A DNA stretch of 25,899 nucleotides from a virus (taxonomy: Duplodnaviria > Caudoviricetes). Position 1 is the first letter of the stretch; every line of letters starts with the position of its first letter. The translations under genes and the position numbers were made by a program. Shown piece after piece: positions 1-17,305 of the stretch. The DNA lies in the IMG/VR virus record IMGVR_UViG_3300020352_000031, positions 1-25,899 of that record. One strand, given 5' to 3'. The notes beneath the pieces are model-generated. The model did not search any database and was not told the origin of the DNA. It was given only the letters and a program-made list of their open reading frames with translations.

Positions 1-27
1 ATCTGGAGAGGAATATCACTCCTCCTT

Positions 28-53
28 TAGAAAATATACTTAGAAAATATACT
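28..53. repeat. 13-bp tandem duplication (TAGAAAATATACT x2) just downstream of the tmRNA coding piece
   Basis: Exact copies at 28-40 and 41-53. Confidence 0.6.
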
Positions 54-59
54 TTATAA

Positions 60-360
60 AGGAGGCTCCGTTGGGTGATACGGTGGAGCCGAAGCCGCAT
101 CTAGCCAGCCTAAGCCGCTAGAGAGTAAACGTCATCGTTTGCGTTTATTTTATTTCCGGAGTGTTGTTAACGTCTTTGATCCGGTACTGTTGACGATTCT
201 CCACTAACCTGAGATTGCTTGTCGAAACCTAGCTCCCCCATCAAAAACACACCCTGCGTAGTCTTCTGCGGTATTCCGGTGGGAACCTTACTACGCCTTA
301 CAGGTGTGCTTTTGGTGGAGGAGGGGGGAATCGAACCCCCGTCCACTCAACCCTACTTTA
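60..360 (-). ncRNA. ssrA: Circularly permuted (two-piece) tmRNA gene: acceptor piece (~360-313), intervening segment (312-240), coding piece (239 to ~60)
   Basis: On the minus strand, GGACGGGGGTTCGATTCCCCCCTCCTCCACCA (T-arm and CCA, ends at 313) precedes GGGGGAGCTAGGTTTCGAC (tmRNA 5' end, G1=239). Acceptor stem GGGGGAG/CTCCTCC has G3:U70 and A73. Tag frame 142-110 reads GCA AAC GAT GAC GTT TAC TCT CTA GCG GCT TAG = ANDDVYSLAA*. Outer ends are approximate. Confidence 0.93.
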
Positions 361-375
361 GCTTCACCGAATACT

Positions 376-720
376 TTAGCCTTCGATGGCTGTGATCATT
401 GCCAAAGCTGCACGCATCTTGATAAGATCGTTCTTAGTTGCTTTAGCTAGAGACTCAACTTCTACACCCAGCATGGTCTGAATCTCGTCAACCATTGCTT
501 CTTTACGCTCAACCGGAACACCTGCTTTAGTAGCTCGTGCCTGTGCTTGATAAATGCCCATGCTTGACAGCTTGGCAATTACGCTGCGTACTGGCTTGTC
601 GAACTCTACAGCTAACAGTTCAGCAGTTTCGCGAGTAGGATTAGCACTGTAGTTGGCTTCCATTACAGAAATCATGTCTTCAGTGTAGTTTGTCGATGCT
701 TTTGCGGTAAATTCGCTCAT
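376..720 (-). CDS. T5 A2-like small DNA-binding protein (114 aa)
   Basis: ATG at 720 after a GGGAG RBS. Motifs NYTE..., RSVIAKLSSMGIY and SLAKATKNDL resemble T5 A2 as recalled; similar to the 4474-4764 protein. Confidence 0.6.
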   Translation of the reverse strand: MSEFTAKASTNYTEDMISVMEANYSANPTRETAELLAVEFDKPVRSVIAKLSSMGIYQAQARATKAGVPVERKEAMVDEIQTMLGVEVESLAKATKNDLIKMRAALAMITAIEG

Positions 721-765
721 TAAAAATTCTCCCAAATTTTGTCTGTTTCTTTATTTTATGAATCT

Positions 766-794
766 ATTATACTAGCTTTCTGTTTTTTTGTCAA
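766..794 (-). promoter_or_regulatory. Consensus sigma70 promoter driving the A2-like gene and tmRNA
   Basis: TTGACA (794-789), 17 bp, TATAAT (771-766). Confidence 0.9.
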
Positions 795-1180
795 GAAGTT
801 TTCGCTGTTTGACTAAAGAGATAATGCATTAGGAATGCCTCCTCTAGTCCTCGTGCTTCTACTTCCCAAGGAGCGAACCAGTAATCCCCTCCCCACTGTT
901 CTCCTTTGAACATCTCTGTCTCCAGGCACAAATCATCTAGCTCGTGTTGTTTAACGTGCACCATCTCGTGTGCTACCGCCCGTATAATGTATACTAGATC
1001 TTCGTTCTTTATAAACTTCCTATCTAGGATGATGCTGTAAACGCTGCCACCCAAGATTTCCAACTCTGCACTGTTCGCACCTAGATCTTCAGTCTCCACA
1101 AAGATGTCTACATCTAAATTATAATAGCCAGCTACTAAGTCTACTACATCTCCAACTGTTTTTCTAAGCCGTTTCTTCAA
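791..1180 (-). CDS. Putative zinc metalloprotease-like protein (HEXXH)
   Basis: AHEMVHVKQ and downstream PWEVEA motifs; probable TTG start at 1180 after AGGAG. Confidence 0.7.
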   Translation of the reverse strand: MKKRLRKTVGDVVDLVAGYYNLDVDIFVETEDLGANSAELEILGGSVYSIILDRKFIKNEDLVYIIRAVAHEMVHVKQHELDDLCLETEMFKGEQWGGDYWFAPWEVEARGLEEAFLMHYLFSQTAKTS

Positions 1181-1346
1181 CGTAACTCCTTGCTTCCGCA
1201 CTAGATTTTAGATGCTTAACTAACCAAGTTATGTCATCAGTGTGTTCGCCCATTGATATTAGTAAGGTCATAGCAGCAGTTTTGTCTAAGCCTTCCCCAA
1301 GCATACCGTAGTATATCATTAAGATGTCAAACTGTTTATCTGTCAT
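1164..1346 (-). CDS. Hypothetical early protein (60 aa)
   Basis: ATG at 1346 after GGGAGG RBS and directly behind a promoter. Confidence 0.7.
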   Translation of the reverse strand: MTDKQFDILMIYYGMLGEGLDKTAAMTLLISMGEHTDDITWLVKHLKSSAEARSYVEETA

Positions 1347-1369
1347 ACTATCCTCCCTTATATGCAACT

Positions 1370-1398
1370 ATTATACTACTTTCCACTTTTGTTGTCAA
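1370..1398 (-). promoter_or_regulatory. Consensus sigma70 early promoter
   Basis: TTGACA (1398-1393), 17 bp, TATAAT (1375-1370), followed by the shared leader AGTTGCATA. Confidence 0.9.
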
Positions 1399-2023
1399 CA
1401 ATTCTTTCTTCCAAGGTATCGCATAGTTTAGTAATTAAAGCGAGGCGACCCTCCTTCTTGTCATTGTAGTTAATTGGGTACCAGTCATTAGTGGTAGTCA
1501 TTACACGTTCTTTGAGAATAGTCATCTCGTCATAGTACGATAGAGCTTTGATATCATTTGGTGATAGCTTCCACGACTTGAGTGGAGAAACTTTTCGTTC
1601 ATTGATACGATCATTCTGCTCGTCTTCACTGATAGATAACCAGAACTTGATGTACTCTACATCTTGGTTAGCTTCCCAGTTGTTTACGTTCGTCATGAAG
1701 TCGCAGTACTGGTCGTCTGAGCACCAGCCATTGATAGGCTGTACCATAGCTCTAGAATACCAACTACGATCAAAGAATGTAATCATAGGTCGCTTAGGCA
1801 TTTTGGTTTCCCAGAACTTAAGCCAGCTCTTCATAATCTTAGAAGTAGGCTTAGTAGAGAGCACAACGCTGTACGAATCTGTAGGCATATAGTGCGTCAA
1901 CTCACGAATAGTGGATGATTTACCAGCCGTATCTCTACCTTCTAGCACTACAGCAGTAGGCTTAAGGTTAGGATTGGCTAAGATGCCGTTTAGTCGTGCT
2001 TGTTGTGTCTCTAATTTGTTCAT
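1376..2023 (-). CDS. ppk2: Polyphosphate kinase 2 family protein
   Basis: Walker A EGRDTAGKS, Walker B FDRSWY, KFWLSISEDEQ..R and lid WKLSPND motifs typical of PPK2. Confidence 0.92.
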   Translation of the reverse strand: MNKLETQQARLNGILANPNLKPTAVVLEGRDTAGKSSTIRELTHYMPTDSYSVVLSTKPTSKIMKSWLKFWETKMPKRPMITFFDRSWYSRAMVQPINGWCSDDQYCDFMTNVNNWEANQDVEYIKFWLSISEDEQNDRINERKVSPLKSWKLSPNDIKALSYYDEMTILKERVMTTTNDWYPINYNDKKEGRLALITKLCDTLEERIVDNKSGK

Positions 2024-5315: not shown

Positions 5316-5822
5316 ATGAGTATATTAGATAACGTAGAATATGAGAGCTATATAGGTTCATGGCCAACAGAGGACGATCGGACATGGATTGCAGAGGCAT
5401 GCGCGGATGCAACAGCAAAAACTCCAGAGTGGTGTATGGAGCAATTTATGATAGAAAAACCGTCCACGGTTCCTACCACCGGCATATTCATAATACCTAG
5501 ATTATTTAGACAGAAAACCGATAATCAAAGAGTATTCGTAGTAGCTAACGTAATAAACATAGATGCACAACACTCAGTATTTTTGGCGAGTGCAGTACAC
5601 CCAGACCACAGAAAGCAAGGACATATGACTAAATATGCAAGAGAAGTGTGGGTATGGGGCCAAACAAACACATGGCTCAACGAAACTATTAAAGATTCTA
5701 TATACCCTCGTATCCCTGCCGCAGGGCATTCTAATCACTCGAATGCTTACACAGCTATGAAAACAAATAGAGGACAAGTAACACTTAGCGCAAGCGTACA
5801 AGATCTATACGACGAACTATAA
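5316..5822 (+). CDS. Putative GNAT-fold acetyltransferase-like protein
   Basis: ATG at 5316 after AGGAG; acetyl-CoA motif A-like AVHPDHRKQGH. Confidence 0.5.
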   Translation: MSILDNVEYESYIGSWPTEDDRTWIAEACADATAKTPEWCMEQFMIEKPSTVPTTGIFIIPRLFRQKTDNQRVFVVANVINIDAQHSVFLASAVHPDHRKQGHMTKYAREVWVWGQTNTWLNETIKDSIYPRIPAAGHSNHSNAYTAMKTNRGQVTLSASVQDLYDEL

Positions 5823-7781
5823 ATGGCAACAGTAACCCTACCTTTAGCACAAACTCACAGTACCGTAAGTGCTGGCCTTCAAGACCTTACAGAAACGGTA
5901 ACTGTTAATATCACCGTGCCTAGTACTTATAACGGTAGTAGCTATACTGGTGATGGTGTAGGGGTTACTCAAAATGCTACTAATTGTAATATCTCAGATA
6001 CTACTCCCAACTGTCCAGGCACTGCTGCCTTTACAGTTACTAGAGCATCGGGCGTCGGAGCTTGGAGCGTAAAAGTAGTATATGAAGACTTTAAGCAAGG
6101 AAGCACAGTTTATAGCTTTTCCCGAACTTTATCAGGATACTGGGCAGACGCCACTCCTAATAATTATAGCTGGCCTGCTACACACGGAGCTCCTCTTAAT
6201 ACTTACATATATAATAATGTGCAGCTTAGTGGCTTTAACACAACTCTTTCTGTAACTTGTTCAGGATTAGCCACATCAGTTTCAAATAGTACAACAGCAG
6301 GTACTTTCAGTACGGCTGCAAAAAACATAACAACCGGGCAGTACTTACACACTCGTATACTTTCCTCTGGCTCTTTTGGTACAACGGTCTCAGGAACAAC
6401 CAGTGTAGGCGGTCTTACTCGAACTAAGAGTGTCACTACACTCGTCGCAGATACAACACCTAACTCTTGGTCAGCTACTGATCAAGTTAATCAAGAATTA
6501 AATATACAGCATTATTATATTCGACAAATAACAGGTATCAACACCTCAGTTAACGTTACTGCTTCAGGTACAGCTGGCACCCTGTTTAAGGTAAATAATA
6601 GTTCATCGTATGTTGCTACAGGCTACAGTACTCCTGGAACTACTTTAAGTATTACGAATGGGCAGTACCTGCATGTTGCCATACTAGCGGCACCGACTTA
6701 CTCCACTAACAGAAATATAACTGTCAGTATCGGAGGAGTTTCAGATAACTGGAGTGTTACAACTAGAGCTGCTGATGTAACACCTAATGCTTTTAACTTA
6801 CCTGACCAAACCAACGCTGCTAGAAGTACTTTTTTCTACTCAGTAGCATACATATCTGGAATTGAAGCTGCTGTATCATTTAATGGCAGTGGTAGCGGAG
6901 CTGTGGCTGTATCTAATACTGCAGGAAATGGTTCAGGAAGTACAAGTAGTGGCTTAGCCTATACTACAGGTGCTGTTAATGTATCAAATGGTCAGTATCT
7001 ACATGTTAGATTAGCGTCTTCCGCCTCGTTTAGTACCACAACAAGTACTACAGTTACGGGTGGAGGAGTAAGTAGCGTATTTAGTATCACTACCTTGGCG
7101 GCTGATACAACTCCTAATGCGTTTAGCTTTACAAATGTTACAAATGCTGCTTTAAATTCTCCGTATACTCGAAGCGCACAAATAACAGGGCTAAATGCTA
7201 GCACACTAGCTAGTGTAAGCGGAAATTCTGCTAAGATTGCTGTAACTTCATCGTCCACTATCCCATCAGATGCCGCATTTACTACAGCTTCTATAAGCAT
7301 GTCTAACACCAACTATATTCATGTAAAAATGAACGCATCTGGCTCTTATAGTACAGCTGTTAGTACTACAGTGAATGTGGGAGGAGTAACAAGTGCTTGG
7401 TCAGTTACTACAGGAGCCCAGGGCGGTACTGGAGGAGGTGGGGGCACAGGTACTGGAGCAGGAACATCTAGTAACCTAGACTATGGAATACAGTTGATAG
7501 GTACAGATGGAAGTACCGAAGTACTTGGAGTTAACACAAGAACAAGCAACCTACAGGTGTACCAGAGTGTATTTATAGCAGCAAATTCAACCTCCTCAGT
7601 TATAGCATGCCCTGATGCTAATAACTCGAGCAAAATATTAATTACAGTAGCACATAGCGGGGGATTCGGAAATAATAACTTTTTCTTATCAGTAAGTAAT
7701 AAAACTAGTACGGGGTTCACAGTAACAAACACTGCTAGTAGTGGTCTTACTGTGAAGATTGTTGCTATAAGGATAACATAA
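5823..7781 (+). CDS. Ser/Thr-rich virion adhesin/tail-fibre-like protein with four ~101-110 aa beta-rich (Ig-like?) repeats
   Basis: Repeats begin ADxTPN at 6144, 6447, 6771 and 7101, each with (G)QYLH/NYIH; Gly linker; C-terminal YGIQL domain; sits next to a fibre chaperone. Confidence 0.65.
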   Translation: MATVTLPLAQTHSTVSAGLQDLTETVTVNITVPSTYNGSSYTGDGVGVTQNATNCNISDTTPNCPGTAAFTVTRASGVGAWSVKVVYEDFKQGSTVYSFSRTLSGYWADATPNNYSWPATHGAPLNTYIYNNVQLSGFNTTLSVTCSGLATSVSNSTTAGTFSTAAKNITTGQYLHTRILSSGSFGTTVSGTTSVGGLTRTKSVTTLVADTTPNSWSATDQVNQELNIQHYYIRQITGINTSVNVTASGTAGTLFKVNNSSSYVATGYSTPGTTLSITNGQYLHVAILAAPTYSTNRNITVSIGGVSDNWSVTTRAADVTPNAFNLPDQTNAARSTFFYSVAYISGIEAAVSFNGSGSGAVAVSNTAGNGSGSTSSGLAYTTGAVNVSNGQYLHVRLASSASFSTTTSTTVTGGGVSSVFSITTLAADTTPNAFSFTNVTNAALNSPYTRSAQITGLNASTLASVSGNSAKIAVTSSSTIPSDAAFTTASISMSNTNYIHVKMNASGSYSTAVSTTVNVGGVTSAWSVTTGAQGGTGGGGGTGTGAGTSSNLDYGIQLIGTDGSTEVLGVNTRTSNLQVYQSVFIAANSTSSVIACPDANNSSKILITVAHSGGFGNNNFFLSVSNKTSTGFTVTNTASSGLTVKIVAIRIT

Positions 7782-14984: not shown

Positions 14985-15252
14985 AAACAGAAAGCATAGA
15001 TTAGTGCATGAGTTAGGAATGTACTTTGCTGAGAAAGGATATGTTGTTTCTTTAAATGAGTATAAGAGAGCCCTTGATAGACCGGCTTTCCTATCTCCTA
15101 AAGAAATAGTAAAAGTGATGGGAACGTATACCGGAGCAGTAGACTGGATTGAAAAATACGAACCGGAACTATGGGAACTTATTCACCAAAAAGAGGATAA
15201 AGATCCTCTAACGGAATTAGCCCAAGCAAAAACGGGGAAAAAGAATGGATAA
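14971..15252 (+). CDS. Hypothetical protein between portal and protease
   Basis: Probable ATG at 14971; overlaps both neighbours. Confidence 0.65.
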   Translation: MAVTRNRKHRLVHELGMYFAEKGYVVSLNEYKRALDRPAFLSPKEIVKVMGTYTGAVDWIEKYEPELWELIHQKEDKDPLTELAQAKTGKKNG

Positions 15253-17305
15253 AATTTTTAATTTAACCTCAACTTTCAAAACCCATGCGGTAGATGACGG
15301 ATCAGTAATGATTCGCGGTATGGCAAGTACAGCAGATTTCGATCGTGCTGGCGACTCTATCTCAGCTCAGGCTTGGGAAAAGGGTGGTTTAAAGAATTTC
15401 GAAAAGAACCCTATTATTCTTTTCAATCATGATTACGATCGTCCTATCGGTCGTGCTACAGGCCTTAAAGTAACAGAGAATGGCCTGGAGTTAGAAGCAA
15501 AGATTAGCAAGTCCGCACCTGCTAATGTTTGTGAGTTAGTAAAAGAAGGTATCCTTGGAGCATTTTCTGTTGGTTTCCGAGTCAAGGATGCTGATTTCAT
15601 AAAGGAAACCGACGGACTAATGATTAAGGACGCAGAATTGTTTGAGGTATCGGTTGTTTCCGTTCCTTGTAACCAAGAAGCTACTTTTTCGCTCGCGAAA
15701 TCTTTTGACTCTATGGACGAGTATGAAGAATTCAAAAAAACTTTCACAAATCGTGTAGATCTAGCCGGTCAGACTCTGGCTAAAGACGAAGTTAATACTT
15801 CTAGCGTAGCTAGTGATACACCGGACGGAACCGAAGAGGTTCAAAAGGAGATACAAATGTCTGAAGTTAATACTCCAGAAATCGACTTAGCCGCATTCGC
15901 AAAGCAAGTAGCAGAAGAAACTGCTACCAAGATTGCAATGAAGCAAGCCGAGCAAAAAGCTGCGGATGAAGCCGTAGCACAAGAAATCGTTGAGAAAGAA
16001 GCAGCAGACGCTGAAGCTAAGGCTCAACAAGAAGAAACAGTCAAGACCGCTGTAGTATCTGGTGTACAATCAGGTGCAGAGCGTCTATTAGCTGACATGC
16101 AAGCCGACTTCGACTCCAAGGGTGTTGAAACTGCTGAAGTACTAGAAAAGTACAAGTCTGAGTTGATGGAAAAATCAGCTGAGCTTGAAGCTATGCGTAC
16201 TAGCAAGCGTGACTTCTCTGGCCGTACAAACGGCGTAGATGCTAAAGCAATGGGTGGCGATTTATTGTCTGCTCACATTCTTGGTAAGATTACTGGTAAA
16301 GGTTGGGATACTAACTTTGGCCGTGAAACTCTAGAAAAAGCTGGCGTAACCTATACTGGTACTGCTGGTGACGGTTCTGCAGTTGGTGTTGACGTAATCG
16401 TATCAAACCAGTTTGAAGAAGAAGTTCGTCAAGCAATGAAGGTTGCACCTTTGTTCCGCGAAATTCAAGTTTCAAGTGGTGCTACTGTACTACCAATCGC
16501 TCCTGATACAGAAGCTGCTAACTTTAGTGCTGGCGGTGCTGATACAGCTGCGAACAACTTGGAAGAAGCAGGCGCATCTGATAATAACTATAACGTTAAT
16601 CAGGTTATTTTGCAAGCACACAGATTGATTTCAAGCACGTTTATTCCTGCTGATACTGACGAGCAAATCGTTATCTCAATCCTACCTATGCTTACCTCAG
16701 CTCTAGCACGTGCTCACGCAATTGCTATTGACTCAGCTCTACTAGTTGGTGCTGGTGCAGGTAACATCTCTAAAGGTCTAGTAGGTGTGAACGGTACTGA
16801 CAATGCAAACGGTTACGGTGCAGCTTCTGCTCTTACCGCAATTGATGCATCAGCTTCTGCTATTGTAACTCCTGCTAACCTTCTTGCAATGCGTAAGGAA
16901 ATGGGTAAGTACGGTCTAGAAGCTAGCCGTGTAGCTTACATCGTTCCTACTGATGCATACTTCAACTTGATTGATGCTTCAGGATTTACCGATGTAACAG
17001 AAGTTGGTAGTGATTTGGCTACTAAGCTTTCTGGTATGGTTGGTACGGTCTTCGGATCTCCTGTAATTGCTACAGATCGTCTAGTTAGCAACTTGGCTAA
17101 CGCTGGCGCAGCCACTACTACTGCAGCTCTTGCTGTAAACATGGATAACTATGTGATTCCACGTTTGCGCGGTGTTAACGTAGAAACTGACTACATCGTC
17201 AAAGAGCAGCGTACCGTATTGGTCGCAACTCAGTCTCTTGGCTTTAACGAGTTAGTTGCTGGCGCGGGCGCTAATAAGCCTGCAGTTCGTTTCCCTTTCC
17301 AATAG
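15245..17305 (+). CDS. Prohead protease-major capsid protein in-frame fusion (HK97 fold), with internal capsid start at 15857
   Basis: N-terminal protease motifs (LFNHD..RPIG, FSVGF, LFEVSVVSVPCN), coiled-coil delta domain and HK97-like capsid domain with no stop between them; AAGGAG-ATG at 15857 is in frame. Confidence 0.92.
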   Translation: MDKIFNLTSTFKTHAVDDGSVMIRGMASTADFDRAGDSISAQAWEKGGLKNFEKNPIILFNHDYDRPIGRATGLKVTENGLELEAKISKSAPANVCELVKEGILGAFSVGFRVKDADFIKETDGLMIKDAELFEVSVVSVPCNQEATFSLAKSFDSMDEYEEFKKTFTNRVDLAGQTLAKDEVNTSSVASDTPDGTEEVQKEIQMSEVNTPEIDLAAFAKQVAEETATKIAMKQAEQKAADEAVAQEIVEKEAADAEAKAQQEETVKTAVVSGVQSGAERLLADMQADFDSKGVETAEVLEKYKSELMEKSAELEAMRTSKRDFSGRTNGVDAKAMGGDLLSAHILGKITGKGWDTNFGRETLEKAGVTYTGTAGDGSAVGVDVIVSNQFEEEVRQAMKVAPLFREIQVSSGATVLPIAPDTEAANFSAGGADTAANNLEEAGASDNNYNVNQVILQAHRLISSTFIPADTDEQIVISILPMLTSALARAHAIAIDSALLVGAGAGNISKGLVGVNGTDNANGYGAASALTAIDASASAIVTPANLLAMRKEMGKYGLEASRVAYIVPTDAYFNLIDASGFTDVTEVGSDLATKLSGMVGTVFGSPVIATDRLVSNLANAGAATTTAALAVNMDNYVIPRLRGVNVETDYIVKEQRTVLVATQSLGFNELVAGAGANKPAVRFPFQ

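Follow-up and report, generated by a model that had tools for sequence, protein, structure and literature searches.

A predicted permuted two-piece tmRNA gene at the stop codon of an upstream reading frame in an uncultured T5-like phage

The DNA that we analysed, hereafter the window, comprises positions 1-25,899 of IMG/VR record IMGVR_UViG_3300020352_000031 (Caudoviricetes; 25,899 nt), a fragment of ~26 kb that represents about 27% of a genome. Judging from its gene content, its source is an uncultured marine siphophage that we refer to as T5-like, claiming no membership in the Demerecviridae: its TerL is 49-50% identical to those of My1, Slocum and Vibrio T5-like phages, PHROG matches identify T5-type portal, protease/capsid and tail genes, and its capsid-protease shares 27-37% identity with T5-like phages. 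The prohead protease and major capsid protein form a single 686-aa ORF (15245-17305, plus strand) where the T5-like matches annotate two genes, and a polyphosphate kinase 2 gene (2023-1376, minus strand; PF03976, E = 1e-42) is of a kind frequent in the same phage group. A search for its homologues gave 2300 matches. Relatives of this phage are present in marine RNA and metagenome runs.

Near one end of the window, on the minus strand, lies what several sequence models identify as a complete permuted two-piece tmRNA gene, extending from about 372 to about 64. ARAGORN calls a permuted tmRNA with the tag ANDDVYSLAA (c19-409), and the Rfam model tmRNA_permuted (RF04321) matches 373-110 with 89.5 bits against a cut-off of 47 (E = 2.8e-16); in a specificity control, one of 151 sampled genomes of one bacterial class passed this model, and the next best scored 46. 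The layout pattern of the gene occurs once in the window and in none of 200 shuffled windows. A preliminary description of the locus had proposed a tmRNA whose 3′ half precedes its 5′ half, with a CCA end at 313 and G1 at 239, and had advised running ARAGORN and Infernal with standard and permuted models; the permuted call and the score above cut-off come from that check and place the proposed order on the minus strand, which had not been named. The extent given there, 360-60, hit the locus and was slightly off at both ends.

Read along the minus strand, the gene opens with a predicted acceptor piece of ~60 nt (313-372, with a 5′ end that we infer), which contains the P2 3′ strands (372-344), a T-arm read from the sequence (340-324), the acceptor 3′ strand (323-317), A73 (316) and an encoded CCA (315-313). 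An intervening segment of 73 nt follows (240-312), consisting of an 11-bp basal stem, a variable internal hairpin cargo and a 4-nt end. The 5′ end of the coding piece (196-239) supplies the acceptor 5′ strand (239-233, with G1 at 239 and G3), a D-loop surrogate and the P2 5′ strands (221-196). G3 (237) pairs with U70 (319), so that this alanine determinant is present, as announced, along with the tag ANDDVYSLAA. Ahead of the tag is a PK1-type pseudoknot of the 'long' allele (156-195; stems 195-192/174-171 and 184-180/160-156), drawn from the sequence only, with no shuffle test. The tag frame, ANDDVYSLAA-stop, and a conserved A-rich resume context occupy 110-142 according to ARAGORN, RF04321 and the family comparison, and a 3′ pseudoknot closes the coding piece (64-101; stems 101-95/83-77 and 90-85/69-64), its score of 34 exceeding that of all 30 shuffles (at most 23). 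A pseudoknot on either side of the tag is the standard plan of two-piece tmRNAs (PMC3985003), and LAA is the common end of ssrA tags (PMC9382460).

Downstream of the tmRNA, the fold contains an AU-rich hairpin (21-65, minus strand), the reduced counterpart of a long stem found ahead of tRNA-Cys in L092 and L126. Beyond it, and 3 nt from the contig end, is a tRNA-Cys relic (4-24, minus strand) which, compared with the intact tRNA-Cys of L092 and L126, retains two acceptor strands, U73 and CCA only. Intact tRNA-Cys genes occur in L126, L127, L132, L150, L177 and L183, and L125 has a hairpin similar to the relic at 1754-1775. We dismissed the idea that the relic is a functional tRNA-Cys microhelix, since the same stretch in L125 is a plain 10-bp hairpin and the copy in the window sits at the contig edge. 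We also dismissed a coding piece ending in a CCA-bearing tRNA-like structure, which is seen only after alpha-type tails and is absent in the window.

On the upstream side, the tmRNA is abutted by the stop of a small ORF on the same strand (376-735; 119 aa from TTG 735, or 114 aa from ATG 720, the likely true start). Its product may bear a weak likeness to T5 A2-type DNA-binding proteins: it matches phrog_1725 with E = 1.3e-4 and its Atlas cluster is 25% PF26822 (Phage_T5_A2), and direct comparison with T5 A2 gave no significance (hhalign probability 1%, BLAST E = 0.024). No match to the ORF was found among cultured phages; its paralogue has a weak one. This paralogue, 35-50% identical to the ORF, lies 1.4-5 kb downstream in most family loci. 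Further upstream is a perfect sigma-70 promoter (766-794, minus strand; TTGACA-17-TATAAT, 12 of 12 positions), the nearest site upstream of the tmRNA to reach 10/12.

Using this ORF as an anchor, we assembled a set of related loci, made up of the 80 best among 116, L111 and the window itself. Among them, a tmRNA stands at the ORF stop in 17, elsewhere in view in 3, and in none of the sequence in view in 62. In a tree of only 113 columns, the carriers are confined to a single, well-supported clade, whose 24 distinct rows comprise 15 with the gene at the slot, 3 with it elsewhere and 6 with none. The junction is no assembly chimera: an independent metagenome contig, L206, is 99.7% identical to the window over 1575 nt (313-1887) and carries the same passage from ORF to acceptor piece. 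When the T-arm/acceptor pattern was searched for in GTDB genomes, it returned seven loci, namely five standard one-piece tmRNAs, one cut standard match and one without a call.

The geometry of the junction varies little. From stop codon to CCA there are 59 nt in 16 of the 17 loci and 63 nt in the window, despite differing ORF C-termini; in those 16, stop codon and helix P2 overlap by one base, the last of the former and the first of the latter, and in the window the stop lies 4 nt upstream. All 17 family loci examined have a consensus promoter upstream of the ORF. A promoter of the tmRNA's own (sigma-70, at least 9/12, 45-150 nt from the CCA) is found at 0 of 11 distinct junctions, which share ancestry and hence are not independent, as against 25 of 74 other phage genes; for this count, 8 duplicate loci and loci with less than 200 nt upstream were dropped. 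On the minus strand of window positions 1-1500 we found no terminator-like site. The ORF and the tmRNA are thus likely to be transcribed as one RNA from the promoter at 794-766.

What stands at the junction can be compared with the spacing of promoters elsewhere. In other phage permuted genes with a strong promoter, 69-72 nt separate the end of the -10 box from the CCA end in 12 of 17 cases, so that acceptor pieces there should measure about 63-66 nt. Short acceptor pieces are therefore the norm in phages, and the ~60 nt of the window, which had been presented as very short, are ordinary; in this family, the stop codon occupies the position at which transcription would be expected to start. 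In the sister loci L136 and L137, the tmRNA does have a promoter of its own, at 72 nt from the CCA. A stop codon within 66 nt also occurs in 8 of the 74 other phage permuted tmRNA genes. That a 5′ end not set by a promoter is workable is suggested by the cultured phage Marzo, in which 68 nt separate a tRNA from the permuted gene that follows it.

Sites for RNase E, with the consensus RN/WUU, are overrepresented near stop codons (PMC5222698), and the junction of the window matches that consensus in full. A full match occurs in just 1 of 18 T5-like loci, which rules out a conserved complete RNase E site as a family feature of the junction. Among assembled RNA runs, a contig crosses both spacer junctions at 194-399 (contigs of 4 of 21 listed runs), and in a relative (record 2 of X13) 255 nt of the ORF are joined to the acceptor half and spacer; either may be precursor or DNA, and neither shows a processed end. 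Ends of X7 and X13 contigs at or near 376 were rejected as evidence of a cut, as their alleles at 436 and 439 match the tmRNA-less L125 and relatives diverge there.

The predicted structure is conserved among the carriers. For 29 named pairs in 14 aligned genes, 96.5% of 404 cells are paired (47-59% in slid controls), a value reached in 0 of 500 shuffles; the structure was drawn from the window itself, and eight pairs show two-sided change, each resting on one sequence. Within P2, 7 of 17 pairs change on both sides across the 14 sequences, again in one sequence apiece. The 7-bp acceptor stem is nearly invariant and so yields no covariation signal; G3:U70 and ACCA are present in 17 of 17 slot loci (best 80 of 116 loci, plus L111 and the window). 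With different letters, the same 3′ pseudoknot topology outscores each of 30 shuffles in 11 of the 17 distinct tails, and the 6 on which our strict no-bulge finder failed are alpha-like. The acceptor piece is 86-98% identical to that of the window in T5-like relatives, in which the adjoining ORF DNA is 60-68% identical, and the tags of these relatives all end in AA; together these argue for selection. Homologues without stem covariation and tag conservation had been named at the outset as grounds for refutation; the relatives show both covarying stems and conserved tag ends. No one-piece tmRNA was called in 80 family loci (best 80 of 116). We built no RNA tree because the modules of the tmRNA recombine.

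The intervening segment had been noted to fold back on itself. It does so at -25.6 kcal/mol (z = -2.95; 1 of 200 shuffles as stable), with both of the stems named earlier in the fold. Spacers in the family measure 4, 26, 30, 65, 73, 75 or 126 nt, those of 4 nt between CCA and G1 being found in five loci (L128-L131 and L133). A basal stem of 10-11 bp with covarying arms is present in 10 of 12 distinct spacers (0 of 1000 shuffles); it recurs in 48 of 79 phage permuted genes, where it extends the acceptor helix. The spacer of the window is 99% identical to that of L135 while the neighbouring modules differ, and its PK1 allele is 98% identical to those of L130 and L150 and 96-98% to those of seven relatives. 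All four combinations of spacer and PK1 alleles are seen (L128, L130, L132, L177). A T4-like contig with its own tmRNA promoter, L117, has a 44-nt spacer core identical to that of the T5-like L132, and the two have the same tag and tail type. One type of spacer cargo also occurs outside the tmRNA in L137 (39 nt identical); the cargo of the window turned up in just one other viral contig and matches no Rfam family. On these comparisons, spacer, PK1, tag and tail are exchanged as modules, with a T4-like phage taking part as well.

Some relatives have further insertions in or near the gene. In L177, L183, L146, L150, L139, L136 and L137, the tail is followed by another slot mounted on a stem, whose basal stem resembles that of the spacer. 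It carries about 80-200 nt of conserved non-coding cargo, for which no Rfam model reached its gathering score in the loci that were scanned; this slot is collapsed in the window. L147, in the same clade, has a different permuted tmRNA (5586-6039), whose spacer appears to hold a small basic ORF, and also an Hsp20-like ORF. ORFs in L183 (12020-12253) and L147 (4953-5150) appear to resemble ribosomal protein bS21.

The gene is also missing from some relatives. The partial contigs of the three closest ones, whose ORFs are 94-98% identical, carry no tmRNA, be it at the slot or outside it, and two of the three keep a shortened 3′ pseudoknot. In the tmRNA-less L126 and L127, the ORF stop is directly followed by a shortened pseudoknot of the window type, and then by a long hairpin and tRNA-Cys. 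In L140 (IMGVR_UViG_3300007956_000088, 424-520), the tmRNA body is deleted, so that the ORF ends LVAA on the former tag stop and is followed by the tmRNA tail; this LVAA is possibly a hard-wired ssrA-like end, and may be a by-product of deletion between short shared sequences. The losses in the closest relatives and in L140 look like separate deletions. A permuted tmRNA was found in 0 of 3 near-complete genomes of the outer clade. Since the gene is missing at the slot in its three closest relatives and from all three of these genomes, it is likely to be dispensable in this phage group. Neither these losses, nor the promoterless junction, nor the swapping of modules had been noted in the preliminary description.

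With the prototype of RF04321 in Caulobacter, the gene has in common the order of its halves, the G3:U70 stem, T-arm, CCA, P2, two pseudoknots and an LAA tag; it differs in residing in a phage, in lacking a promoter of its own and in having a swappable hairpin as its spacer. The Caulobacter acceptor piece, of roughly 80 nt, is longer than the ~60 nt of the window. Among clade-specific models, the betaproteobacterial RF01850 fits the window best (64.5 bits, E = 1.3e-17), below its cut-off of 84 and with the same type of 3′ pseudoknot; the T4-like L117 passes it at 96.7. L094 (58.9) and L099 (55.5), which belong to the same phage clade as the window, pass alpha_tmRNA (RF01849; cut-off 50), which on the window, like cyano_tmRNA (RF01851), stayed below the beta model, as a lower-scoring clan overlap or unmatched. 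By these scores, subtype goes with the swappable tail and is no guide to the host.

Two-piece tmRNAs of phages are a published class, to which the window adds one member, and the rarity implied at the outset finds no support. Buchholz et al. (2022; PMC9004378) report tmRNAs in 402 of 18,146 phage genomes, 53 of 133 unique structures being two-piece, and proposed the same roles for them as did the preliminary description; Nawrocki, Petrov and Williams (2025; PMC11915505) list 79 phage sequences and built RF04321. Two strict patterns that we ran on IMG/VR returned 90 and 23 stretches, and ARAGORN made 110 permuted calls on those 117 loci, duplicates included. The phages of the former study (Melnitz, HTVC008M, Mosig, cyanophages, phiCbK-like phages and Menderavirus; PMC9004378) resemble ours in being aquatic, in having a permuted gene and in the role proposed. 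The tmRNA is likewise patchy among Melnitz-like contigs (17 of 47), and the Melnitz gene differs in that it is reported to follow an early promoter (PMC9004378). Within the parts of that paper on which we draw, Table S1 names no phage that we recognised as T5-like, and the passages describe neither a fusion to a stop codon nor module swapping (PMC9004378). Nor did we find a promoterless tmRNA at a stop codon described in the literature that we searched, which covered few subscription papers.

The best cultured match to the acceptor half is in Stenotrophomonas phage Marzo (Menderavirus, MZ326868; 80.6% over 62 nt), which likewise has a permuted gene with no room for a promoter; there the gene lies in a tRNA array behind tRNA-Leu rather than a protein gene, and both tag and phage group are different. 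No cultured phage was found that covers 80% of the window tmRNA. The route that we propose for the 5′ end resembles the cutting at stop codons by RNase E that generates 3′ UTR small RNAs (Chao et al. 2017; PMC5222698), except that those are Hfq-type regulators ending in terminators whereas the product here is a predicted tmRNA half.

Taken together, the arrangement probably represents a two-piece tmRNA without its own promoter, made from a single transcript and run by the host as a dispensable booster of ribosome rescue. Transcription from 794-766 would proceed through the ORF, acceptor half, spacer and coding half, and the two halves would be held together by P2 and the acceptor stem. The spacer would be lost through cleavage by host RNase P ahead of 239 and through 3′ trimming that uncovers the encoded CCA at 313, as has been proposed for two-piece tmRNAs (PMC3985003). 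We propose that an endonuclease such as RNase E, whose sites are enriched at stop codons (PMC5222698), would cut at or near the stop codon and free the ~60-nt acceptor piece; the coding piece would have its end shielded by the 3′ pseudoknot. Host AlaRS would charge the molecule via G3:U70, host SmpB and EF-Tu would deliver it to stalled ribosomes, and the tag would direct the unfinished protein to ClpXP-type proteases.

Dependence on host SmpB, suggested from the start, is the best reading of the sequences. The window, only about 27% of a genome, holds no smpB, as had been stated, and we found none in six records in all (the window, four partial relatives and one complete, more distant relative whose genome is without tmRNA). 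The conserved resume context and LAA end fit the earlier suggestion that the gene sustains rescue during infection, and we found no support for its companion, that rescue is redirected. In the literature searched, we came across no experiment that tests the function of a complete phage tmRNA in infected cells.

The same mechanism could serve a different end: rather than meeting a general rise in stalled ribosomes, the tmRNA could be a back-up for host tmRNA destroyed by host defences or by RNases, or for the shut-off of host transcription. Patchy presence and rapid module swapping, which we regard as typical of genes in conflict, would fit such a role, as would the prediction that CoCoNuT defence systems target RNA including tmRNA (PMC11090510) and the early degradation of host DNA by T5 (bioRxiv 10.64898/2026.04.02.716235). 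The parts that vary, however, are spacer, PK1 and tail, with the tRNA-like core nearly fixed; and of the T5 nuclease A1, whose gene is described as conserved in the T5 family (bioRxiv 10.64898/2026.04.02.716235), no homologue appeared in five related records, two of them complete, in a search run without a positive control. We regard this alternative purpose as unlikely, if worth keeping in mind. Considerably harder to credit is a tmRNA that acts as a decoy, soaking up host SmpB and blocking rescue in the manner of the truncated tmRNA of phage DS6A, or that is an inert relic of an integration site. A form with only the tRNA-like domain is reported to inhibit tmRNA (PMC4131195, PMC11915505), and tmRNA genes are common integration sites; but here the gene is whole, with tag frame, resume context, LAA end and both pseudoknots intact and conserved, and no integrase match emerged from the 25 + 19 window ORFs scanned, a subset of the ORFs of a fragment contig.

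Two further explanations, both improbable in our judgement, concern the processing itself. The acceptor half might not be cleanly released, leaving an ORF message that is charged with alanine and held to the coding piece, or a cut inside the stop codon might create a nonstop message that is tagged by the same tmRNA. The lack of an own promoter at all 11 junctions is what such a model expects, and in 16 of 17 loci the stop codon would be severed if the piece were cut so as to begin at P2, with U at +2 and +3; the window, whose stop sits 4 nt upstream, would keep it intact, and the promoters of L136 and L137 imply that a free short piece occurs in the same clade. By destroying the stop, such a cut would make the putative DNA-binding protein encoded upstream a substrate for tagging. 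The resulting loop, which we doubt, would limit itself, and it would be hard-wired in one relative by fusion to the last codons of the tag. That relative is L140, which has lost the tmRNA body and whose ORF ends LVAA fused to the tag stop, an outcome also explained by the short sequence shared by both deletion ends. The X13 contig joining ORF, acceptor half and spacer in an RNA library could be an unreleased product but may be precursor or DNA, and close relatives manage without the loop. Alternatively, the tmRNA precursor might be a launch pad from which RNase P and trimming free the spacer as a small structured RNA with a job of its own. Spacers of 26-126 nt on a common basal stem, its arms covarying (10 of 12 at 10-11 bp), would suit this role, as would the cargo found outside the tmRNA in L137 and the one identical over 44 nt in T5-like phages and the T4-like L117. 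Yet five loci make do with a 4-nt spacer, near identity in distant phages is expected if cargoes recombined recently between fixed flanks, a basal stem is found in many phage permuted genes (48 of 79), where it simply lengthens the acceptor helix, and the cargo of the window, found in one other viral contig only, matches nothing in Rfam.

What distinguishes this locus is not the permuted gene itself but the promoterless junction at a stop codon, together with a natural series of variants. At one locus in one clade, the gene is present, absent or reduced to its tail, its spacer ranges from 4 to 126 nt, and it occurs with and without a promoter. This series makes it possible to test how the 5′ end of an acceptor piece is formed without a promoter and whether the spacer has any role, the genes with 4-nt spacers offering a minimal natural substrate for processing. 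If the acceptor half did stay on the message, a bacterial-type mRNA would be charged like a tRNA, which would be surprising. Finally, since spacer, tag and tail can be identical between T5-like and T4-like phages, unrelated phages that infect one host appear to exchange tmRNA parts, and as a consequence, tmRNA subtype should not serve to infer the host of a phage.
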